A stretch of 60,919 bases of DNA from Chthoniobacteraceae bacterium (GCA_031409655.1 JANNXQ010000286.1:1-60919), one strand, 5' to 3'; numbered from the stretch's first letter, positions 12,213 through 32,327 are shown. Notes: generated by a model not told the origin, from the letters alone. Translations and numbers: made by a program.

Positions 12213-12333
12213 CGGAAATGACACCGATGGCTTTCGACCACAGATGACCCAGATAGCACAGATGGAAGGATAAGCCTGAAAGCGGGATTGGGATTTTTAA
12301 CGCAGAGACGCAAAGACGCAGAGGACGCAGAGT

Positions 12334-13337
12334 TAGAGCATTTTAAATATTCGCGTAGCCGTCCGCCGCGGTCTTTCCTACAGTTTTTGAGCGCCCTCCT
12401 TCTCGTTGGCATTTGCGCACGCGGATTCTTGCTTCGTGCGATCAACTGGAGGGGACGCGGGCAGACATTGCCAAACGTTTCCGGGTGTCGCTGGGCATGG
12501 TGAAAAAACTGCTCCAGCAGCGGCGCAAAACCGGCAAGATCGGCCATCGTCACGCCTGCGCGGGGCGGAAGCCCAAAAACCTGCCGAGGTATCATCACCA
12601 GATGCAGAAACTGCTGGCAAAAAAGCCCGACCTCACCTTGCTGGAACTGCGCGCCGCCCTGGCGCTCTCCTGTTCGCTGCCGGCCATTCACTACGCTTTG
12701 GCGGACTTGGGGCTGACATCTAAAAAAGACGCTCCGCGCCAGCGAGCAAGACCGTCCCGACATCGCCAAAAGCCGGAAGGCGTGGCGGCGCCAGCAAACT
12801 CGACTCGACCCGGCGCGCTTGATCTTCCTTGACAAATCCGGGGCGAAGACCAATCTGACGCGGTTGCGCGGACGTGCCGCGCGGGGCTAAAGAGTCCACG
12901 CCAGCCACCCACACGGCCACTGGCACACGACGACCATGATCTCCTCCATTCGCTTCGACGGCACGACGGCTTGCAGGACGATCGACGGGGCCACCGATCC
13001 AGACACTTTCCGCAGCTACGTCGAGCAGGTCTTGGTTCCGACTCTGCGGACCGGTGACATCGTGATCATGGACAATCTCGCTGCCCATAAAGACGACAAG
13101 ACCGAGGCGCTGATCGTCGCGGCCGGGGCGGAAGTGCGGTTTCTTCCGCTCTATTCCCCGGATCTCAACCCGATCGAAAAGATGTGGAGCAAGGTCAAAA
13201 ACTCCCTCCGCTCAGCCGAAGCCCGCACCCTTCCCCAACTCCAAAAAGCGATTGCTGTTGCCTCGGCAAAGGTGCCGGACAAAGACGCGCTTGGATGGTG
13301 GATTTCGTGCGGCTATCGCTTTATTTAAAATGCTCCA
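12334..13337 (+). mobile_element. Degenerate IS630-family insertion sequence (~1.0 kb)
   Basis: TIRs tagagcattttaaata (12334-12349) and tatttaaaatgctcca (13322-13337). HTH ORF and DDE ORF (MDNLAAHK, FLPLYSPDLNPIEKMWSK) are linked by an A6G slippery site at ~12722. In-frame TAA at 12888-12890; DE changed to DK. Confidence 0.9.
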
Positions 13338-13339
13338 GC

Positions 13340-13844
13340 CCGTCCGGCGCCCGATGCCGGTTGGCCCCCGTCTTTACATCGAACGCCTTTCAGACTCAGG
13401 ACGGTTCCACGAGCTCAAGCTCCGGACTGCTTTCCGCTCCACCGGCTTCCGCCCCCGCTCCTGCCAGAGCATATTCACGTAGTGCCACGGCGAATGGTGA
13501 TACTTCGCCCGCCGAGGTGGCGGAGGGGAATAGCGGCGGACGGTGAATGGGCGAGCAGCGCCGCATGGCCTAAGTCCCGCACAACATCCGGCTAAGTCGC
13601 CGCCCGCAGGAAAAGCGCCCGATCCCGCTGCGCCTGCGTCAGCGCAGACCCCACATCCTCCGCCAGCAAATCCGCATCCCCCGGCGCCCCCCCGCAAAAG
13701 CCCCACCGCCTTCGTCCGCGTGGAGGCATCCATGTGATCCCAAGCCACCGCCGCCACCACCCGATGCCCCTTCTGATCCCAGGCGTGCGCTGACGTGGAA
13801 AACAGCGTGAAAGCAAGCAGGAGCGATAACGACGGCGTCTTCAT
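13340..13844 (-). pseudogene. S1/P1 nuclease pseudogene
   Basis: Signal peptide then AWDQKGHRVVAAVA; frameshift near C-run 13687-13693; TAG at 13592 where Trp of WPD is expected; PWHYVN; truncated at the IS630 end. Confidence 0.75.
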
Positions 13845-13899
13845 CCGGGCATGAGAACGGAGTGGTCTGGTGGCAGTGGAGGAGGATTGCGGAGCGGAA

Positions 13900-13972
13900 A
13901 GCGAGCACGGCGACAGCCTGCTCGCTTTCTTCGGGGCACGCAGATAGCCAGTGGGCTGTCGCCACACTCGCT
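13900..13972. repeat. Paired bulged hairpins (array boundary element, copy 1)
   Basis: agcgagcacggcgacagcctgctcgct (13900-13926) and agccagtgggctgtcgccacactcgct (13946-13972). Confidence 0.85.
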
Positions 13973-14333
13973 CTACGGGCTCGTCACCTTCAGCCACCGT
14001 GCCGATCGAGATGCTGAAGGTGTGCGTGCTGCCGGCGCCGGTGTCGGGGATCGGGGTCCAGCTTCCATTGAGCAGCGTCGTGCTCCACTCCGCGCCGTAG
14101 GTGATGCCGCTCACGCCCGCGGGCTGGGTGAAGCTGGCTACGAAGTTCCCGCCGACCTTCTGCGGGCGCGGGAGCTGGCCGGCGCTGTTTTGCGTCGGAT
14201 TCAGGCCGAAGTCGAATTCGAGGAGATTGCCGATGCCGTCCCGGTCGGTGTCGCTGAGGTCGGCGCCGTTGCCGCTATTCGCGATGCTGCCGAAGTAGAT
14301 CTGCCGCCAGTTCTCCAGGCCGGTGAGGGTGAT
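13973..14333 (-). pseudogene. Orphan copy of the giant protein C-terminal domain
   Basis: LENWRQIYFGSIANSGNG...GITYGAEWSTTL...HTFSISIGTV; no start codon; ~17-nt deletion near the end. Confidence 0.9.
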
Positions 14334-14394
14334 TCGTGGTGTCAGGCCTTTCTCCACGCTTACCCGGATTCGTGACGTGCCTAATCCTGTCCGT

Positions 14395-14580
14395 ATGACC
14401 CAAGCCGTCGCCCGCATCATCGGCGAAGTCGAGCAGCTCTCCGTGCCCGAGCGCATCGAATTGCGCCGCCTCATCGCGCAGCGCGTCCCGATGACGGACG
14501 ATCTCACCGACGACGATTTCGCTGCCATCGCCGCAAAATCGTTCAGGGCGCTGGATGCGGAGGAGAAAGCCAGGCATTGA
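14395..14580 (+). CDS. Small antitoxin-like (addiction-module-type) protein, 61 aa
   Basis: MTQAVARIIGEVEQLSVPERIEL..., acidic; its stop overlaps the hicA TTG start. Confidence 0.55.
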   Translation: MTQAVARIIGEVEQLSVPERIELRRLIAQRVPMTDDLTDDDFAAIAAKSFRALDAEEKARH

Positions 14581-14765
14581 AAGTCCGTGACGTTATCAAA
14601 CTGATCGAGGAAGACGGGTGGCAGATGGTCCGCACCCGCGGCAGCCATCAGCACTACAAGCATCCGCGAAAGCCCGGCTTGGTCACGGTCGCGGGTTATC
14701 CTGGCGTTGACGTTCCGAAAGGCACGCTCAACAGTATCTACAAGCAAGCCAGTCTGAAGGAATAG
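14577..14765 (+). CDS. hicA: HicA-family toxin
   Basis: 62 aa; DGW...RGSHQHYKHP...GTLNSIYKQA. Confidence 0.92.
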   Translation: MKVRDVIKLIEEDGWQMVRTRGSHQHYKHPRKPGLVTVAGYPGVDVPKGTLNSIYKQASLKE

Positions 14766-14770
14766 CTCTC

Positions 14771-14986
14771 ATGCATTACACCGTCGTCATTGAACAGGGG
14801 CCAACCAGCTTCGGAGCGTATGTCCCCGATCTGCCGGGTTGCGTCGCCGCCGCCGAGACGCGATCGGAGGTCGTGTCTCTGATCCGGGAAGCGATCGAGT
14901 TTCATTTGGAAACCTTGCGAGACGAGGGGATGCCCGTTCCCGAACCGCATTCGAGCGCGGAACTCGTCGAAGTCCCAATCGGCTGA
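14771..14986 (+). CDS. hicB: HicB-family antitoxin (short, no DNA-binding domain)
   Basis: AYVPDLPGCVAAAET...EAIEFHLETL. Confidence 0.92.
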   Translation: MHYTVVIEQGPTSFGAYVPDLPGCVAAAETRSEVVSLIREAIEFHLETLRDEGMPVPEPHSSAELVEVPIG

Positions 14987-15058
14987 TCCTGCGCGGAAAA
15001 AGGAGGAAACGGGAAAACGGCTCCGCGTCACGCGGCAGATGCCGGCAGGCCGCCGCCG

Positions 15059-15163
15059 TGGAGGGATGCGCTCCGTCGCGTCCCCGATGAACGGTCGGAG
15101 ACGGCGCGGAGCCCCCACCGCCTCCGCCCGGAAGTTTGGGACATGACGGAGCATGTCCCTCCA
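15059..15163. repeat. REP-like inverted pair, family D (ggagggatgcgctccgtcgcgtccc ... gggacatgacggagcatgtccctcc)
   Basis: Imperfect inverted arms; a related single arm at 31905-31930. Confidence 0.65.
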
Positions 15164-15209
15164 AGGCACAGAGAAATCGATCCGCCTCTCGCCACACTCG
15201 CTCTACGGC

Positions 15210-15302
15210 TTACGGGTCCGTCACCTTCAGCCGCAGGAAGAGCTTCGGGGCCGAGCCGATGGAGAGGCGGAAGGCGGGCTGGGCGCCGGTGCTGGTGCCC
15301 AT
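15210..15302 (-). pseudogene. Orphan 3'-tail fragment of the giant gene, followed by a half hairpin (15189-15203)
   Basis: GTSTGAQPAFRLSIGSAPKLFLRLKVTDP*. Confidence 0.8.
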
Positions 15303-15318
15303 CGCCCGCGGCTAGTGG

Positions 15319-15400
15319 AAAGGATGAAGGATGAAGTGAACTGGCCTTCGGCGAAGCGGCCATCTTCTTCATCCTTCCGCCTTCCTCCTTCCTCCTTCCT
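15319..15400. repeat. Inverted heptamer array (aaggatg)n...(cttcatc/cttcctc)n, copy 1
   Basis: Direct heptamer runs in inverted orientation; second copy at 19255-19343. Confidence 0.8.
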
Positions 15401-15402
15401 GT

Positions 15403-15925
15403 TCAAGGGCTGGTGAGCTGCACTTCGTCGAGGGAGAGGGCGCGATCGTCTCCACTGGGGTTGTCGGACAGCCCGCGGGACACGCGGATGACGCGGCCAG
15501 TGACGTTGCCCGTGCTGACGCTGAGCGTGGCGGGGCCGTTGAGTACGTTGTTGGGGTTGAGCACTGCGGAGGTGAAGACCGGCACGGTGCCGGCCGCATC
15601 GCTGAAGACCCGCACGGTGATGTTGCGCAGGCGATCCCCCGCAAAGCTACGATTGTAGAGGAGGATGCCGCCGATCTGGGTGTCGATCGGCAAGGTCAGC
15701 GTCCACGTCGGGGCGGTGTCGGCCGGGTCGGTGTGGGTGAAACTGTTGAGATTCCCGTCGATGGCATTGGAGGCTGGGTAGCCACCCGCGCAGTAAGCCG
15801 AGCTCTGCGTAGCGACCGCTCCGGCGAGGGAGATGGGCGTGCCGGAATCCGTGACCTCGAAGCGCCAGAACATCCGGGGGTTCGTGCCGATGGGCCAGTG
15901 AAGGTGTGCAGCTGACCCGTGCCGG
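15403..15925 (-). pseudogene. Divergent C-terminal tail fused in-frame to an F-type lectin/F5-8 type C-like domain (orphan)
   Basis: PIGTNPRMFWRFEVTD-SGTPISLAGAVATQSS...ASNAIDGN...FTHT...W...YNR...RLRN...GRVIRV...LSLDEVQL*. Confidence 0.75.
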
Positions 15926-16004
15926 GGTTCCGGAGCGTGAAGGTCTTCAACGCACCGGGTAGGCCAAGGATCTTGTTGCCGAAATCGACGCTGGGCGTTC
16001 CCAC
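15920..16004 (-). pseudogene. Fragment of an ASH/choice-of-anchor D domain
   Basis: GTPSVDFGNKILGLPGALKTFTLRN resembles giant-gene GATSVDFGSKILGTPGVPKTFTIRN (~23760-23835). Confidence 0.75.
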
Positions 16005-16045
16005 TAAGCCGCCATGCCGCGTGGCCTACAAGGCACGACGCGGTC

Positions 16046-16222
16046 TCACTGCTGCGCCACTGCCGGCTGCCGGCTCTTCCGTCCGGCGGCATAGCGCTGG
16101 CGCACGTCCTGGAGGTAGGCGACGCGTTCTTCCATGGTCATCGCGTCGAGCTTGCGGCTGGTGCTCTCGCGCCACTTGCGGCTTTCGGCGACGGCATCAA
16201 ATGCTTTGGTCTTGGTGTCCAT
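16046..16222 (-). CDS. Small putative antitoxin partner of the PIN protein, 58 aa
   Basis: MDTKTKAFDAVAESRKWRESTSRKLDAMTMEERVAYL...; overlaps the 3' end of the PIN gene; below the ORF-track cutoff. Confidence 0.65.
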   Translation of the reverse strand: MDTKTKAFDAVAESRKWRESTSRKLDAMTMEERVAYLQDVRQRYAAGRKSRQPAVAQQ

Positions 16223-16664
16223 AGATGAGTTGCAGTGGGTTGACGATACGGACAGGCGGGTAGCCTTGCAAAAGGTTTACGGCATTGAAGCCAGCTTCGC
16301 GTTGGACGTTGACCAGATGCCGGAAGTTCCAACTCACGAGGTAGTCGAGCCGGGAGACGGTGCAGGCGGCGACGTGCCGGGCGTCGTCGCTGTATTTGGG
16401 CGTAAGGACGGCTTACGCGAGGTAATTGGCGGCGAGCTGCTCGACCTCCGCCGTCACGACCACGAGTGCCTCGGGTGCAAAGGTGTCTTCAAAAAGTTCA
16501 CGAACGTTTTCCGGGGCGTCGGCCAATTCATCGACGGTGATGGGCGAACTGAGGAAGCGCCATTGGCCCGCTTCCATCTGCCGCCAAAGTTCCTGCGTGG
16601 CGTCTTTCCACTCGTCGTCGAAGTAGCCGCCGATGACGGAGGTATCGAGGTAAAGGCTGGGCAC
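16197..16664 (-). pseudogene. PIN-domain toxin with one in-frame TAA (16413-16415)
   Basis: LYLDTSVIGGYFD...; the same frame continues after TAA as DDARHVAACTVSRLDYLVSWNFRHLVN...NPLQLI to TGA at 16197. Confidence 0.88.
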
Positions 16665-16684
16665 AGATATGGCGCGATTGTAGC

Positions 16685-16756
16685 GCGAGTGTGCTGACAG
16701 GCCACTCGCTTCTTCCGGGCGCGCAGAGAGCGAGTGGGCTTTATCGCCACACTCGC
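16685..16756. repeat. Paired bulged hairpins (copy 2)
   Basis: gcgagtgtgctgacaggccactcgct and agcgagtgggctttatcgccacactcgc. Confidence 0.85.
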
Positions 16757-16767
16757 GCTCCGCCGGC

Positions 16768-17108
16768 CTATGGGTTCGGGTCCGTCACCTGCAGCCGCAG
16801 GAAGAGCTTCGGCGCGGTGCCGATGGGGAGGCGGAAGGTGTGTGTGCTACCGGAGCCGGTGTCGGGGATCGGGGTCCAGCTTCCGGCTTGCAGGGTGGTG
16901 CTCCATTCGGCGCCGTAGGTGATGCTGCTCACGCCGGCGGGCTGGGTGAGGGTGGCCACGAAGTTCCCGCCCACCTTTTGCGGGCGCGGGAGCTGGCCGG
17001 CGCTGTGGAGCGTCGGGTTCAGGCCGAAGCCGAATTCGAGGAGATTGTCGATGCCGTCGCGGTCCGTGTCGCTGAGGTCTCCGCCGTTGCCGCTATTCGC
17101 GATGCTGC
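16768..17108 (-). pseudogene. Orphan copy of the giant protein C-terminal domain
   Basis: SIANSGNGGDLSDTDRDGIDNLLEFGFG...KLFLRLQVTDPNP*; begins 3 bp after the DUF5615 stop. Confidence 0.9.
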
Positions 17109-17111
17109 GGA

Positions 17112-17459
17112 TCAGAGCGGGAGATAGATGATCTGCCCGGTCGCCTCATCAGTCGTGGACGCGCGGGCGACGATCTCGAGGTCTTCCACGCAGCGTCCGA
17201 TCGAGACGTGCTGTTGGTGCGCGTACACGATCGTTGCGAACGAAAGTCCCGCCCGGTGGCGGCGCACACCCTCCGCGAGAAAGTCCGAGTCGCGCGTGAA
17301 GACGATGCGCCCGAGCACTGCCACCCGGTCGAGCAAATCGGGATCGAGAAACCGCGCCGCGCCGTCCTCCTGCGCCGTGAGCACGTCCACGCCACGTCGG
17401 CGCAATCCCCGTGTGATGCCCGCGGGGACATGCACGTCCATGTAGAGCCCGAGGCTCAC
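17112..17459 (-). CDS. DUF5615 PIN-like toxin
   Basis: LYMDVHVP...GVDVLTAQEDG...DPDLL...FTRDSDF; GTGA overlap with DUF433. Confidence 0.85.
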   Translation of the reverse strand: MSLGLYMDVHVPAGITRGLRRRGVDVLTAQEDGAARFLDPDLLDRVAVLGRIVFTRDSDFLAEGVRRHRAGLSFATIVYAHQQHVSIGRCVEDLEIVARASTTDEATGQIIYLPL

Positions 17460-17773
17460 TTCGACGATTTCAACTGCCGCAGCCGGCGTTGCAGTGGCGA
17501 CTCCCCGAGTTCCGATTTCCACCCGGCCACTTCCCGCTCACGCCGCAACATCTCCTGCTCGAAGTCAGTCTGATGATCGTAGAAGAACGCGAGCGCCGCG
17601 TGGATTTGCGCCAGCGTCAGATGCGGGAACTGCTCGTGAATCGCCTCCGCGCTCCACCCATAGGCCAGATGATCCAGCGCGAGTTCGACGACTTTCACAT
17701 TCGTATCGTCCAACCACGCCACGCCGCTCTCGTCGCGGACGATGTGGGAGGCAGGTTCGGCGATGGATGGCAT
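17456..17773 (-). CDS. DUF433 antitoxin
   Basis: TNVKVVEL...GWSAEAIHEQFPHLTLAQIHAALAFFYDH. Confidence 0.88.
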   Translation of the reverse strand: MPSIAEPASHIVRDESGVAWLDDTNVKVVELALDHLAYGWSAEAIHEQFPHLTLAQIHAALAFFYDHQTDFEQEMLRREREVAGWKSELGESPLQRRLRQLKSSK

Positions 17774-17839
17774 GGCGGTGACCGTAAAGGCGCGGCGCGC
17801 TGTTGGCAAAGCCGCATTCATTTTACTGCCGGAGCGTGG

Positions 17840-17866
17840 AGCGAGTGGGCTGTCGCCACACTCGCT
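17840..17866. repeat. Single bulged hairpin (copy 3)
   Basis: agcgagtgggctgtcgccacactcgct. Confidence 0.85.
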
Positions 17867-17876
17867 CTCCGCCGGC

Positions 17877-18368
17877 CTACGGGTTCGGGTCCGTCACCTT
17901 CAGCCGCATGAAGAGCTTTGGCACGGTGCCGATGGAGGTGCTGAAGGTGTGCGTGGCACCGGGGCCGGTGTCGGGGATCGGGGTCCAGCTTCCGGCTTGC
18001 AGCGTCGTGCTCCACTCGGCGCCGTAGGTGATGCCGCTCACGCCGGCGGGCTGGGTGAAGGTGGCCACGAAGTTCCCGCCGACCTTCTGCGGGCGCGGGA
18101 GCTGGCCGGCGCTGTTTTGCGTCGGGTTCAGGCCGAAGCCGAATTCGAGGAGATTCCCGATGCCGTCGCGGTCGGTGTCGCTGAGCTTTCCGCCGTTGCC
18201 GCTGTTGGCGATGCTGCCGAAGTAGAGTTGCCGCCAGTTTTCCAGGGCGGTCAGGAGTCGGCCGGTGAGGGTGATGTTGGTGATGGCTTCGTGCGCGTCG
18301 TGGCTGACCACGCGCAGGGTGGTGGCGCGGAAGCCGGGGGTCGTGGGATTGAAGGTCACGATGATCGA
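17877..18368 (-). pseudogene. Orphan ASH-domain end plus complete C-terminal domain of the giant-protein family
   Basis: IVTFNPTTPGFRATTLRVVSHD...ITLTG..TALENWRQLYFG...KLFMRLKVTDPNP*; 17964-18105 matches 19871-20012 at 141/142 nt. Confidence 0.9.
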
Positions 18369-18416
18369 GTGAGTGGAGCGTTGCGAAGGGAAGCCGGGGA
18401 TGGCACCGTCAGGGAC

Positions 18417-18623
18417 ATGAGCACTAAGATGATCGAGCAACGATTGGCCGACTTGCAGAAGCGCGTGGAGAAGCTGGAGGCTGCCAAAACGCTCTCCGAT
18501 AAACTCCAACTCCGCGATCGTTGGAAGGAGGCCTTCGGCGCGATGAAGGATTGCGAGCATTTTGAGGAAGCGATGAAGCTCGGCGCCAAGTGGAGAGCGA
18601 AAGCGAATCGGGAGGGCCGGTAG
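18417..18623 (+). CDS. Putative antitoxin of VapC, 68 aa
   Basis: MSTKMIEQRLADLQKRVEKLE...WKEAFGAMKDCEHFEEAMKLGAKWR; 4 bp upstream of the PIN toxin. Confidence 0.75.
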   Translation: MSTKMIEQRLADLQKRVEKLEAAKTLSDKLQLRDRWKEAFGAMKDCEHFEEAMKLGAKWRAKANREGR

Positions 18624-18627
18624 TGCG

Positions 18628-19050
18628 ATGGTGGCGGTGCTCGACACCAACCACTTCACGGAATTCGTCCGTGGCGCGCAGTTGGGACGGAATCTGAGAG
18701 AGCGAATTACGGCGCAAGACGCGGACGTATTCGTGTCGATCGTCACGGCGCAGGAATCCTTCGAGGGCTGGTTTGCCCTGATCCATCGCCAACGGGCAGG
18801 CCGAAATCAGATCAAGGGCTACGCCGAATTCCAGCTCAGCATGGAAACATTGATGAAATTCACCATGCTCCCATTCGACGACGAAGCCGCGGACCACTTT
18901 CACCGCTTGCAAAGTGGGCGCGTGCGCATCGGCACGATGGACTTGAAGGTCGCCTCCATCTGCCTCGCTCACGACGCCACGCTGCTCACGCGCAATCTCG
19001 TGGACTTCGAGAAGGTTCCCGGCTTGCGCGTGGAGAACTGGGTGGACTGA
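18628..19050 (+). CDS. vapC: VapC PIN-domain toxin
   Basis: VLDTNH, SIVTAQE, GTMDLKVASI, LLTRNLVDFEKVPGLRVENW. Confidence 0.92.
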   Translation: MVAVLDTNHFTEFVRGAQLGRNLRERITAQDADVFVSIVTAQESFEGWFALIHRQRAGRNQIKGYAEFQLSMETLMKFTMLPFDDEAADHFHRLQSGRVRIGTMDLKVASICLAHDATLLTRNLVDFEKVPGLRVENWVD

Positions 19051-19056
19051 GCGGAG

Positions 19057-19129
19057 AGCGAGCATGGCGACAGCCTGCTCGCTTCTTCCGTGCGCCCAGC
19101 CAGCGAGTGGGCTTATCGCCCCACTCGCT
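19057..19129. repeat. Paired bulged hairpins (copy 4)
   Basis: agcgagcatggcgacagcctgctcgct and agcgagtgggcttatcgccccactcgct. Confidence 0.85.
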
Positions 19130-19139
19130 CTCCGCTGGC

Positions 19140-19238
19140 CTGCGGGTTCGGATCCGTCACCTTCAGCCGCAGGAAGAGCTTCGGCGCGGGGCCGATGGGG
19201 AGGCTGAAGGTGTGCTGGGCGCCGGGGCCGGTGCCCAT
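19140..19238 (-). pseudogene. Orphan 3'-tail fragment of the giant gene
   Basis: GTGPGAQHTFSLPIGPAPKLFLRLKVTDPNP; TAG replaced by CAG. Confidence 0.82.
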
Positions 19239-19254
19239 CGCCCGCGGCTCGTGG

Positions 19255-19343
19255 AAAGGATGAAGGATGAAGGATGAAGTGAACTGGCCTTCGGCGGAGC
19301 CGCCAGCTTCTTCATCCTTCCGCCTTCCTCCTTCATCCTTCCT
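19255..19343. repeat. Inverted heptamer array, copy 2
   Basis: (aaggatg)x3 ... cttcatccttccgccttcctccttcatcctt. Confidence 0.8.
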
Positions 19344-19345
19344 GC

Positions 19346-19735
19346 TCACGGGCTGGTGAGCTGCACTTCTCCGAGGGAGAGGATGCCGTCGTCTCCCGCC
19401 GCGGGGGTGGACGGCCCGCGGGACACGCGGATGACGCGGCCAGTGACTCCGCCGGGGCTGACGCTGAGCGTGGGGGGGCTGTTGAGCACGTTGTTGGGAT
19501 TGAGCACTGCGGAGGTGAAGACGGGCACGGTGCCGGCCGCATCGCTGAAGACCCGCACGGTGATGTTGCGCAGGCGTTCCCCGCAGCAGCCGAGGCGATT
19601 GGAGAGGACGATGGAGCCGATCAGCGTTGGGCCTGGCAGCGTGAGCGTCCACGTCGGAGCGGGGTCGGCCGGGTCGGTGTGGGTGAAGTTGTTCAGATTG
19701 CCGTCGATGGCATTGAAGGCTGGGAAGTCGCCGAC
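19346..19735 (-). pseudogene. 5'-truncated F-type lectin/F5-8 type C-like domain (orphan)
   Basis: FPAFNAIDGNLNNFTHT...W...SNRLGCCGERLRN...LSLGEVQLTSP*; in-frame TGA upstream and no start codon before the domain. Confidence 0.75.
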
Positions 19736-19783
19736 CGCAGCGAGTCCGCCTCAGGCGAACCGCCACACTCGCTCTCCGCCGCC

Positions 19784-22700
19784 CTACGGGTTCGGGTCGG
19801 TCACCGTCAGCCGCATGAAGAGCTTCGGCACGGTGCCGATGGCGATGCTGGAGGTGTGCGTGCTGCCGGAGCCGGTGTCGGGGATCGGGGTCCAGCTTCC
19901 GGCTTGCAGCGTGGTGCTCCACTCGGCGCCGTAGGTGATGCCGCTCACGCCGGCGGGCTGGGTGAAGGTGGCCACGAAGTTCCCGCCGACCTTCTGCGGG
20001 CGCGGGAGCTGGGTGCCGTTGCTGAGCGTAGGGTTCAGGCCAAAGGCATACTTGAGCAGATTCACGGCGCCGTCCTTTTTGTAGTCGTTGAGGTTGGCGC
20101 CGTTGCCGCTGTTGGCGATGCTGCCGAAGTAGAGCTGCCGCCAGTTTTCCAGGGCCGTCCGGGCGCTGATCACCACGTCGTTCCCCGTGCCGCCCATGTA
20201 GGTGATCTTCATCGGCACGCCGTTGAAGGTGAAGGTCGATCCTTCGAGGTAGCTCAAGCTGTCGAAGCGGCCCGTGATCGGGTCGGTGCCGTCGTTGTTC
20301 ACGAGGGTGAAGCTGTCGCCCGGCTGCGGCACGTACGCGCCGCTCAGGATGAGGTCCACGCCGGCGAGGTTCACCCGGCCAGCCACGTTGAGTTGGTTGT
20401 ATCCCGTATCCACGGTCGTGCCGTTGATGGCGAGTGCGAGGTTTGTGTTGGCGGGCATGATCAGGGCGCCCGTGTTGAAATTCACGTCCGTCGTAACGTC
20501 AGTGCCACTGGTGATTGGCTGGATGCTGCTGAAGGCCGCGCCGAGCAGGAGAGGGGCACCGCCGGTGTTCAGCGTGCCGGGGTTAAAGACGATGTTACCG
20601 CCGCTATACAGCGCCACATCGGTGCTGGACGGGCGCGTGATGGCGGCGCTGACGGTGAGCGCGCCGCTGCTGTTGGGGTCGCCGATGTTCACCGACCCGG
20701 CGGTGACGCGGTCGAGTTCGGCATCCGAGAGTTCGAGCGTGCTCGCGGTGGTATCCACGGTGGAGCCGAGATTGATCAATTGTCCATTGGTCTTCTGCCG
20801 CAGCGTGACGGTGGTGCCGTTGATCGTTCCACCGGCGAGGTTCATCCCATCCGCGATCAGCAAGATGTAGCCGTTGGTCGAAGTGGTCGTCCCGCCGCTA
20901 TAACGAATTCCTCCCCCAGCCACGCCGGAAGTCCCGGTGATGATGAGATCGCCACCTGCAGTGATGTTGCTGAGCACCGCTACGCCGTCGGCGCCATTGG
21001 TCGAGGTGCCGTCGAGCGTGAGCGTGCCGGTGCCGCCGGAGGCGAAGCCGCCGCCTGCTTCGGGAGACACGCCAAGTTTCCAAGACCCTGTCCCGGTATT
21101 CGATCCCGTGATGAGCACATTGCCGCCGCTCGAAGTGATGACTCCGCTGAAAACCGCATAGACACCTGCAAAGGCTCCCGCGCCGCTCACCGTGCCGGTC
21201 ACGGTGACATTGCCCGCGCCGCCCGCCTTGAGCGTCGATCCTGCGTCGATCACCCGGACGCCCGTCGCGCCGGAGGTCGTGCCCGAAGCGATGCCGGTGA
21301 CGCTCACGTCCGCACCGCTGGAGGTGAGCAGGCCGCCGCCTGCGACCAGCACCCCAAAATTCTCGTTGCCTGAACCGGTGATGTTCGAAGTCCCCGTCAC
21401 CGTCATCGCCGGTGCGCCAGCGGTGCCGCCGCGCAGGATGCTGCCCGCGCCACTCACCGCCACGCCGTATCCCCCTGTGTCGCCGCTGCGACCGGTGACG
21501 GAAAGCGTGCCCGTCCCGGTGACTTCGACGAGCGCGGAATTGATATCCACGCCGACAAAGGAGCCCGTCGTCGTTCCTGCCGCATTGGCGGACAGGGTGA
21601 GGTTGCCATTTACGGTCACGACGCTAGCCCCGCTCACTAGTGCGATGTTGCGCGCCGTCGTCAGGGAAATCGCCCCGGTGCCGCTCGCGCCGAGGTCGGC
21701 GTTTGTGTTGGCGAGGTTGATCGTCCCATTGCCCGTGCCGGCCGCGCTGACCGTTAAGTTCTTGTTCACCGCCATCGTCACCGCTTGGTTAAAGGTCACC
21801 CCGCTGCCCGTGGTGAGCGAGAGGTTGTTCGGGTGCGTGATCGCCGCGCTCGCGGTGATCGCGCCGCTGTTCGCGTCGCCGATTTGCACCGTGCCGGCGG
21901 TGACCTGATCCAGTTCGGCATCGGTGAGGCCGAGCGTGGTGGCGGAATCGGCAGCGCCGAGGTTGATGAGCAGCCCGTTCGTGTTTTGCCGAAGCAGCAC
22001 AGTTCCGGCGGCATTCGCGCTGACCGTGGACTGCAAGCCCATCTTGTCGGCAATGAGAGTGATGTTCCCGCCGTTTATCGCCGTGGTGATCGCCGCACCC
22101 GCGTCGATTGTAATTCCCGGCCCGTTCGCGGCGCTGGTCGTTCCCGCGACACTGACCGCCCCGCCTCCCGAGGTGATCTGAGCAGAGGCCGTGGAGACAG
22201 ACACGCCTGCGCCCTGTAGGCCAGTGCCCACCACGGTCACCGTGCTGGAAACGCCGCCAGAGGTGATAACACCTCCATTGAAAGCTTGCACCCCGATCGC
22301 AAACGGGCTCGCGTTCGCGCCGCCTTGACCGATGACCTGCACATTCGCGCCGTTCGAGCGGATGGTGCTGCCGGGATCGCGGACGTCCACGCCATGCTGG
22401 AACGCTGTGGCCGCCGAGCCGCCCGTGCCAGAGACCGTCACGGTGCCAGCCGTGCCACCGACGATCCTGCCCCCGCCGCGCACATACACGCCAAACGCGC
22501 TGTCCCCCACGGTGCCGCCTTTTCCCGTCACCGACACGACGCCCGAGCCGGTGGCCTCCACCACGCCACCATTGATATCCACGCCGACAAAGGCGCCCGG
22601 CGTCGAACCCCCGGCGTTGGCCGAGAGGATCAGGTCGCCATTCACCGTCTCAAAGCTCGAGCCCGCGGCCATCGCCACATTCCTGCTCGCCTTCACCGCG

Positions 22701-31454: not shown

Positions 31455-31975
31455 GGCGTGGTTAAAAGTCTACGAAACACCGTTCGGTGGATGTGTGCTC
31501 ACCCGTTCCGATCGAAATTTTTTCTTCGTTCGTTTCATCCGACCGCGAAGATTTCTGCTTTTTTCGCGGAGCGAGAGCGCGGGAGGCAGGGGAGAAGCGT
31601 TTTCATGGAGGCGGCAAGTCGTGGACGGCGACGCACCGGCGCAGGCGTTGACTTGGGAAAGTCCGCGACGGTGAATTCGGGAAATCGCCGCCGTGGCGAC
31701 TCAGCGGAAGCGGCGCGCTGGACAAAAGAGACAAGGCTATCGCGCCGACTCCGGCAAGCGCCAGAGAGATGATCTCAGAGTTAACGAGAGACGCTTATGA
31801 GGCTTCGACGCGCGATCGCGATCGGAATCGTGGAAGCAACTCATTTTCAGCATTTGTCTGACAGCGCGTGGCGTAGAGCGAGTGGGCCAAGAGGACACTC
31901 GCCTTGGAGGGATGCGTCCGTCGCGTCCCCGATCGAAGGGGCAGAGGTGGCGTGGAGCCCGCGGGCCCGCCCGGG

Positions 31976-32327
31976 TGCAATCGCTTCGTGCAGCAAGGTC
32001 GGGAAGTCCGACCGGGGCAACGCGCGCTGGTGCTCCTGCGCGGTCCCGGAGGCGAATTTGAGGTGCCCTTTGACGAAGCCGTCGTCGGCGGTCCGGCGCA
32101 GGACGAGAGCCGCCACTACTGGATGCAGCGCGAGGGAGCGGAGCCGGTGGTGGTGCCGGACATTGCGAGATTCGTGGAGAAGGACAAAGCGACGAAGGAG
32201 CAAAATTGGGAAGACGTGCCCGCCGGATCGTCGCTGGAAGGGCTGCTGCTCCCGCGCCTGCCGGGGAAGGATTACCGGCTGCTAAAGGTGGTGACGCAGG
32301 CTCCAACTCCAGAGCAGGTCGCCCGGC
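31976..32327 (+). pseudogene. Possible remnant of a small protein (SRAP-like CNRF N-terminus)
   Basis: CNRFVQ...YRLLKVVTQAPTPEQVARL reads like a real protein, but no ATG precedes the Cys and it runs into the ThuA stop. Confidence 0.35.

Follow-up and report, generated by a model that had tools for sequence, protein, structure and literature searches.

An array of diverged gene-end copies and toxin-antitoxin pairs in a Chthoniobacteraceae genome

Many chromosomal toxin-antitoxin (TA) pairs lie outside recognised mobile elements, and the route by which they arrive is open. Here, we address this question at a locus of a Chthoniobacteraceae bacterium (GCA_031409655.1, hereafter G000), a metagenome-assembled genome (MAG) of 6.85 Mb in 306 contigs with 95% completeness and 5.3% contamination. 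The window that we analysed is its contig C286 (JANNXQ010000286.1), 60,919 nucleotides long, in which a giant gene for a protein that we infer to be secreted is followed, at 13.3-20.2 kb, by an array of pieces of such a gene's 3' end interspersed with small gene pairs. The conserved C-terminal domain of the giant gene is referred to as the tail, its resident copy as T0 and the downstream pieces as T1-T5, all on the minus strand. How did copies of a gene end come to alternate with TA pairs?

Self-BLAST and a repeat search found five startless pieces of the 3' domain, at the five sites reported in an initial annotation but with slightly refined boundaries, alternating with four different TA pairs and two lectin fragments (Table 1). 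The six tail copies, T0 included, share 78-91% pairwise identity (self-BLAST, E down to 1e-150), and the hairpin said to follow the gene and every copy is indeed one palindrome family present behind 6/6 copies; it is a repetitive extragenic palindrome (REP), here REP-A, whose inverted doublets are known as REPINs. Every retained tail piece is a 3' end starting 0 to ~60 bp from cargo. Gain is thus accompanied by decay: several units show deletions, and one or more of the toxin genes are broken. The array is a real feature, the checked junctions recurring in a separate assembly, and it is one case of a family-wide pattern. On balance, we think it likely that it formed as TA-bearing DNA was inserted serially at gene ends, anchored by homology and without a dedicated recombinase. 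The earlier proposal that the 3' end acts as a repeated recombination anchor appears likely, as the same layout is found at other anchors, cargo varies by species and empty sites exist.

The copies in the window are mosaic and drawn from paralogues with other domain orders. In T2 an ASH piece directly precedes the tail, where the resident gene has ~1100 residues of other sequence, and this junction matches genes in G036 and in two congeners of G000 (G002 and G003) at 76-86%; the piece at 15.4-16.0 kb is, apart from an internal deletion, 79% identical to an intact G036 gene over its final ASH-tail-lectin part. T0 is itself a mosaic, with one block like a lone copy on contig C206 and the remainder like T2 (52 informative sites, permutation p 0.0003). 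Ratios of nonsynonymous to synonymous change (dN/dS) are 0.26-0.47 among T2, T3 and T5, comparable to those for pairs of long genes (0.36-0.66), and 0.91 for T1 versus T4, the last on 28 codons. Paralogue-type junctions, coding constraint and mosaicism together indicate that the pieces are the ends of several once-working genes that recombine. A paralogue on C44 is 78-86% identical in coding DNA, but identity climbs to 91-94% across the tail end, the half REP and the startless lectin fragment, a rise that suggests recent exchange anchored in the tail. The 5' ends of T2 and T5 extend beyond those of the copies on their left, and a lectin-palindrome-tail block at 15189-15781 is 85% identical to 19116-19727. 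Adenine-specific mutagenesis, as by diversity-generating retroelements, was ruled out, the substitution spectrum not being A-biased.

The layout recurs at unrelated gene ends. In G002 (C57), a giant RCC1 gene of another family is followed by four copies of its end (69-87% identical in pairs), each with a different small-gene pair after it, namely VapB-PIN, a partner with a split PIN_3, an inverted pair without Pfam match, and Phd-PIN; three of the four pairs have TA Pfam matches, and another GTAG-type doublet stands behind three of the four copies. The same anchor and doublet occur in G000 (C212) in three copies carrying BrnT-BrnA and a second pair, and tblastn at E 0.01 found no match between this cargo and that of G002, so that one anchor bears varied cargo in two species. 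Just past the four-copy array (C57; L238:14401-16400), a tail fragment and an HTH-HNH pair lie between copies of a second anchor type (163 bp, 94%).

The footprint was also sought around PIN genes in general, counting a gene as bracketed if a direct repeat of at least 50 bp lay within 1.5 kb of it and using random G000 genes of like size as controls. In G000, 7/18 PIN genes were bracketed (6/17 without the window) versus 11/215 controls (Fisher p 9e-5), three of these 11 being themselves TA toxins. Across five relatives the count was 7/30 for the best-scoring 30 of 97 loci, one of the seven having a 100% repeat at both contig ends, a possible assembly effect. A search of G000 for near-direct repeats returned 242 pairs not within one gene, and inspection of those with only small genes between them located TA pairs between a gene end and its diverged copy on C45, C46, C29, C276, C212, C298, C96, C86 and C38; some bracketed loci hold other cargo (C85, C213). 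On C276 the gene-side copy has lost the stop codon that the spare copy keeps, and in G007 a PIN locus is flanked by two copies of the dprA 5' end. A small gene of one type (intact start MCNRF) flanks vapBC pairs that differ between G000:C86 and G002:C40, and also one vapBC pair common to G000:C38 and G003:C495. Homologues of the window's cargo were found at 25 TA loci of relatives, none beside the window tail and 4/25 with a direct repeat of at least 40 bp; the footprint is thus common but not the rule.

A housekeeping gene, trpB (TIGR00263 above cut-off), offers the same picture in another genus, g23, where 21 of 30 genomes searched gave a full match to its end. Six of the 21 carry its final 100-165 bp again, in one or two additional copies, with PIN or ParE cargo that differs between genomes and with variable 5' copy boundaries; three copies start 0-4 bp past the cargo stop codon, like T3 in the window. 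Empty sites were seen at 9/15 loci examined, these being different species and not sibling strains. Mismatches between copy and host gene number 17/5/38 by codon position (38 synonymous, 19 not), an excess at third positions (p 0.0014) over the 43% share simulated for exact duplication followed by decay, and 6/7 copies are matched more closely by another genome than by their own host gene. As the mismatches fall mostly on third positions, the copies look like alleles from other lineages.

Under serial insertion, incoming DNA from related cells or paralogous loci, bearing a homologous gene end and a TA pair, would pair at the anchor; its far end would then be joined by illegitimate recombination immediately behind the TA pair, or else a circle carrying a single repeat and the TA pair would integrate through one crossover. 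By both routes the host gene would retain an intact end, so that insertion costs little, and the older end would be displaced downstream as an orphan, each orphan offering a further landing site. The REPIN would be copied along since it abuts the stop codon, TA addiction would slow loss via recombination between repeats, and later deletions would have trimmed several units. A tail common to many paralogues would mean many donors and targets, and hence the longest array. Both comEC and dprA are present, DNA uptake being the proposed entry route. Like mosaicism and the apparently foreign alleles, these genes bear only indirectly on homology-facilitated illegitimate recombination, in which a RecA-dependent anchor would hold one side and microhomology would join the other.

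Several observations weigh against this explanation. The trpB pairs have common ancestry and do not count as independent, and two of the seven (G143, G156) lack the synonymous excess. Nine other G000 repeat pairs have mismatches of 34/29/45 by codon position (26 synonymous versus 61 not), a pattern that fits exact duplication followed by decay (p 0.77); constraint on these gene ends is weak, as it is on the tail itself. The relatives' PIN loci are a best-scoring subset, compared with controls from G000 only. A second tail-TA array was found at 0/40 loci of other family genomes and at 0/67 GTDB loci, the small open reading frames (ORFs) of the 67 without a Pfam scan, and no orthologous empty site for the window locus was found, its flanking genes being unlinked in the five relatives searched. 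Further, with a REPIN behind 3/4 copies at G002:C57 and 6/6 here, a role for it in long arrays is conceivable.

A bolder form of the idea, which we put forward tentatively, is that TA pairs in Chthoniobacteraceae spread as gene-end cassettes: wherever a pair had come to lie between two copies of a host gene's end, a circle of repeat and TA pair would be popped out by host recombination and reintegrate at any homologous end. Such ends might, still speculatively, be found in paralogues or other species, giving integron-like exchangeable arrays without an integrase, even behind trpB, with REPIN nicking perhaps priming the longest ones.

Table 1 Features of the array in the window and gene-end anchors elsewhere in the genome
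Feature	Position	Strand	Remarks
Giant gene, 3054 aa	19784..28948	-	RCC1 repeats, three ASH/choice-of-anchor-D domains, glycine-rich repeat region, conserved C-terminal domain
T0, resident tail domain (anchor), mosaic	19784..20165	-	Modelled beta sandwich, no clear fold match
First arm of REP-A only, joined to lectin fragment	19761..19777	-	Identical junction at G000:C44
Startless F5/8 lectin fragment	19346..19760	-	Piece of tail-lectin C-terminus, intact in G036:C143
Second palindrome family (GAAGGAT heptamer type)	19246..19342	.	Dispersed in G000
T1, final 30 tail codons, stop codon lost	19140..19233	-	
Whole REPIN-A, inverted GGAG/GTAG REP doublet	19051..19133	.	
vapB-like partner 18417-18623 (no Pfam match) and vapC/PIN 18628-19050	18417..19050	+	Inverted
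T2, whole tail (to 18255) preceded by ASH piece (to ~18364)	17877..18364	-	
Single REP-A hairpin	17831..17870	.	
DUF433 (17456-17773) and DUF5615 (17112-17459) pair	17112..17773	-	Pfam
T3, tail piece	16768..17111	-	91% identical to T2 over 384 bp including first REP
Whole REPIN-A	16680..16761	.	
PIN-type toxin gene 16197-16664, in-frame stop 16413-16415; partner 16046-16222	16046..16664	-	
ASH / tail-end / F5/8 lectin piece, internal deletion	15403..16001	-	79% over 500 bp to intact G036:C143 gene end
GAAGGAT-type palindrome, second copy	15315..15399	.	
T4, tail end, 5' boundary same as T1	15203..15297	-	
Decayed REPIN-A, third palindrome family nested in spacer	15027..15206	.	Read by eye
61-aa ORF 14395-14580 (no Pfam match), hicA 14577-14765, hicB 14771-14986	14395..14986	+	Inverted
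T5, tail piece (self-match to 14328), 17-bp deletion near end	13973..14333	-	
Whole REPIN-A	13892..13976	.	
S1/P1 nuclease gene, 5' part, frameshifted	13374..13844	-	Full-length paralogue on G000:C46
IS630-family remnant bounding array	~12333..13339	+	Multi-copy by depth
Anchor: 3' end of helicase-associated-domain gene	G000:C45		
Anchor: S1/P1 5' end	G000:C46		
Anchor: PEP-CTERM end	G000:C29		
Anchor: PNPOx end	G000:C276		
Anchor: small hypothetical gene, three copies, two vapBC	G000:C86		

Most of the cargo list of the initial annotation is borne out by Pfam matches (F5/8 lectin twice, PIN, DUF433, DUF5615, HicA and HicB); the 61-aa ORF has none, the S1/P1 nuclease match is weak (E 6.5e-5, below cut-off), and the second PIN gene lies in two pieces without Pfam match, called through a 40% paralogue that matches PIN_3. 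The tight junctions needed some correction: the vapC stop, given as 6 bp from a hairpin, lies at 19050 and abuts the stem at 19051 (0-2 bp), the PIN start is 15 and not 20 bp from its hairpin, and the DUF5615 stop, placed 3 bp from the next tail copy, measures 0-3 bp. Of the hairpins, 15027-15206 reads by eye as a decayed whole REPIN and not a half; at 19761..19777 just the first arm is present. The IS630 remnant just outside the array had not been listed.

Among the rivals, a true target duplication is unlikely yet fares best. Here insertion of the TA pair, whether into a staggered break or through slippage during replication, would leave an exact second copy of 80-400 bp of the recipient's own DNA; the spare would decay, and repetition at one gene end would build the array. 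This is the model of PMC2853133 (Furuta 2010), insertion with long target duplication. In that work, restriction-modification genes that lack mobility genes lie between long duplications of variable length, many of which span a start or stop codon, and a proposed insertion-amplification-release cycle is mentioned with evidence for amplification only. The model may explain the origin of the first unit. The pooled codon-position pattern of the nine G000 pairs fits it, as do the 384 bp shared by T2 and T3, which end inside the REPIN, and the stop codon retained by the C276 spare. Against it stand the upstream sequence in T2 and in the 15.4-16.0 kb piece, foreign to the resident gene end, the 5' reach of T5 and T2, the allele-like trpB copies and the dN/dS among T2, T3 and T5. 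As in that system, an addiction module of less than 20 kb lies between direct repeats longer than 30 bp with no mobility gene inside. Here, however, the cargo is type II TA, events are serial and arrays hold up to four pairs, and repeats are 76-97% alike (allele-like at trpB), whereas those in Table 2 of PMC2853133 are near-identical. Near-identical copies of the recipient target, as that model expects, are not what is seen, the copies being 78-91% identical with foreign sequence upstream, and trpB showing third-position bias; the repeats are too diverged and foreign for plain target copies. A one-copy empty site is seen at trpB, in different species, while the window locus has no orthologue that we found. 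The hybrid that the initial annotation did not recognise is less unfamiliar than it held: integrase-free addiction modules flanked by long, variable repeats that span a stop codon were already known from restriction-modification genes (PMC2853133).

Erosion, which had been raised as the alternative at the outset, is distinctly improbable as the explanation. It posits tandem full-length paralogues, each with a REPIN and a TA pair, deleted except for the addictive pairs. Tandem tail-bearing genes do exist, with five on G000:C259 and adjacent pairs at 3/67 GTDB loci, a giant gene has decayed in place at G002:C28, and the copies come from different paralogues, keep coding constraint and show deletions. 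No TA-sized gene pair, however, lies between the tandem intact genes at those three GTDB loci, and no 5' remnant of any gene is present in five junctions. Erosion may add to the outcome at this locus but fails for trpB and dprA, which, like PNPOx-type genes, are not tandem families and yet show the same layout with variable cargo.

The hairpin raises another possibility. Its arms are GTAG or GGAG plus a palindrome, set in inverted doublets, and it belongs to the GTAG-family REP/REPIN by doublet structure and intergenic dispersal, following the definition (GTAG tetranucleotide plus palindrome, in inverted doublets) in PMC8266576. The REP-A arm pattern has 142 matches in G003, none with a reversed control, and 0-2 in four other genomes; G000 has ~20 arms with two mismatches allowed (a few likely by chance), seven of them inside the array. 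On G003:C309 two REP-A doublets flank a Y1_Tnp gene (NF047646, 78.6 bits versus a cut-off of 80), a candidate REP-associated tyrosine transposase (RAYT). In this respect the element resembles the REP, BIME (bacterial interspersed mosaic element) and REPIN systems with their RAYTs (PMC8266576, PMC3333891), with GTAG plus palindrome, inverted doublets, genome-wide dispersal and, in G003, the flanked candidate RAYT. Unlike those systems, it is present in G000 as ~20 decayed arms, and its cognate RAYT was not found there.

That a RAYT, an HUH nuclease, acted in trans, cutting and joining single strands at REPINs and so moving tail-REPIN-TA units, seems to us a remote prospect, and transport of gene ends together with TA pairs would be a hypothetical activity of REPINs. 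It would fit with REP-A at 6/6 copies and its RAYT in a congener, with the lone tail plus REP pieces on C144, C193 and C206 (two beside TA-like pairs), with the GTAG-type doublet of the second anchor family, and with cleavage and joining of single-stranded DNA by TnpA-REP in vitro (PMC3333891). On the other side, the genome search that the initial annotation had called for found 13 Y1_Tnp genes, but in this 95% complete genome no close relative of the G003 RAYT (best match 43%), and REP-A arms near 0/13 of these loci under a strict pattern; abundant intergenic 16-mers lie near 1/18 PIN genes versus 51/241 controls, a test that low-copy REPs escape, and no shared motif was seen by eye at 21 junction sets. 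Most repeat-bracketed TA loci outside the array are not near abundant repeats. The hairpin is a REPIN and not an attC site, and the earlier suggestion that it is a needed part of the anchor finds no support; in the array it is probably a passenger, and a helper role in long arrays is conceivable because both long arrays carry one.

Many of the 13 Y1_Tnp genes are flanked by their own palindromes, and G000 has more than 100 intergenic repeat clusters, heptamer-type included. At four sites (window 15027-15206 and 31870, and G000:C206 and C205), a REP of one family sits inside the spacer of a different family, and this nesting suggests that REPINs are targets for other REPs.

An integron, in which the hairpins would be attC-like and the array a cluster of attC sites lacking integrases (CALIN) served by the genome's integron integrase (IntI), is hardly credible: such an enzyme is encoded on G000:C132:1573-2547 (TIGR02249, 389 bits versus a cut-off of 265), TA cassettes are common in integrons, and tandem units, a repeated hairpin and TA-rich variable cargo resemble those of integrons and CALINs (PMC2654758), but units hold 95-490 bp of host-gene end, the hairpin is a dispersed REPIN, no IntI is linked, and a simple scan without covariance model found no exact attC core pair (RYYYAAC...GTTRRRY) in 13.3-20.2 kb, with four relaxed candidates all in coding DNA and none at hairpins, the control being weak as no clean attC was found beside IntI on C132 either. 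IntI lies on C132 and none in the window, where the initial annotation had likewise listed no recombinase. An Rfam scan gave a single chance match, outside the array. At the IntI locus, upstream ORFs are AT-richer, and one gene downstream lies between copies of a 165-bp repeat.

A misassembly that joined paralogue ends from dispersed sites, named at the outset as a way to refute the array, can be practically dismissed, since contigs of run X1 cross seven junctions with 0 mismatches at depth 9-16, the same as the flanks, contigs of run X2 agree where listed, and the copies differ by 9-22%, although the MAG is fragmented and partly contaminated, none of the aligned run contigs spans the whole array and no single listed contig bridges T2, T3 or the T4 block through its interior. 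The runs possibly include the source sample, and the comparison is thus a test of assembly and not of distribution. Joints seen in run contigs have short sides and are accounted for by paralogous loci; none was counted as a circle. In run X4, a contig of depth 5 matches window 15830-16274 exactly and then shows ~20 differences in the PIN gene (16275-16427), including at its in-frame stop, being either a variant allele or chimeric.

Other systems share parts of this layout. Immunity arrays of Vibrio type VI secretion systems (T6SS), for which homology-facilitated illegitimate recombination is proposed (PMC5361080), and the orphan modules of contact-dependent inhibition (CDI) and Rhs loci (PMC3150448) likewise feature, behind a large gene, startless 3' pieces with varied 5' boundaries and their own downstream genes, one-sided anchor homology and no integrase. 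Unlike them, the array repeats the conserved end itself and not a polymorphic toxin tip, its cargo is self-contained TA in either orientation, and the layout also occurs at housekeeping genes. In place of the polymorphic toxin and immunity gene of Rhs/CDI, the ends are conserved and the cargo belongs to type II TA families, and no Rhs or CdiA domain is among the Pfam/NCBIfam matches of the giant protein. The array is neither an Rhs/CDI locus nor an integron. No description of TA arrays at duplicated gene ends was found in the part of the literature that was searched.

The tail is carried by at least 12 close copies in G000 and found in 48/151 Chthoniobacteraceae genomes, clustered short-frame copies occurring only in G000. 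Scanning metagenomes for the tail-REP junction pattern gave 15 matches, none with a tail. Its homologues are nearly all from Verrucomicrobiota, the closest (66%) from Chthoniobacteraceae. No Pfam or NCBIfam family matches it, its Atlas clusters are "hypothetical" and from Verrucomicrobiota, and its structural model (pLDDT 66) has no Foldseek match at E 0.001 and an uninformative best VIA Z of 5.3; a sorting role would be a guess. Related domains form the ends of about 60 G000 proteins and may represent a sorting signal not yet characterised, and on G000:C259:366-19078 the five back-to-back large genes close with a distant version of the tail. Startless tails of the window family also lie singly on C144, C193, C206, C137 and C93, three with REP-A; on C206 hicA stands between two tail pieces in permuted order, and the C193 tail lies just past a 5S rRNA-like sequence.

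Further observations concern other small repeated genes. The MCNRF gene, without Pfam or NCBIfam match, has eight copies in G000, 88-93% identical to congener copies and well above core genes, and a decayed copy lies behind nested REP elements at window 31870-32301. On G120:C11 (L247), ~840-bp tandem repeats hold decayed small ORFs, one unit resembling DUF5615-DUF433 DNA. G000:C19:9772-12088 has six short tandem ORFs with a common N-terminal leader and a variable, precursor-peptide-like C-terminal part.

The greater value of these data lies in the family-wide footprint rather than in the single locus. Around one quarter to one third of tested PIN genes in one bacterial family bear a footprint pointing to insertion anchored on host gene ends. 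This carries a mechanism known from restriction-modification genes over to TA pairs and has it running serially into cassette-like arrays. Annotators should be aware that a short "hypothetical protein" without a start, next to a TA pair, can be such a gene-end repeat. With trpB genes carrying and lacking units as clear test sites, the arrival of chromosomal TA pairs becomes directly testable.

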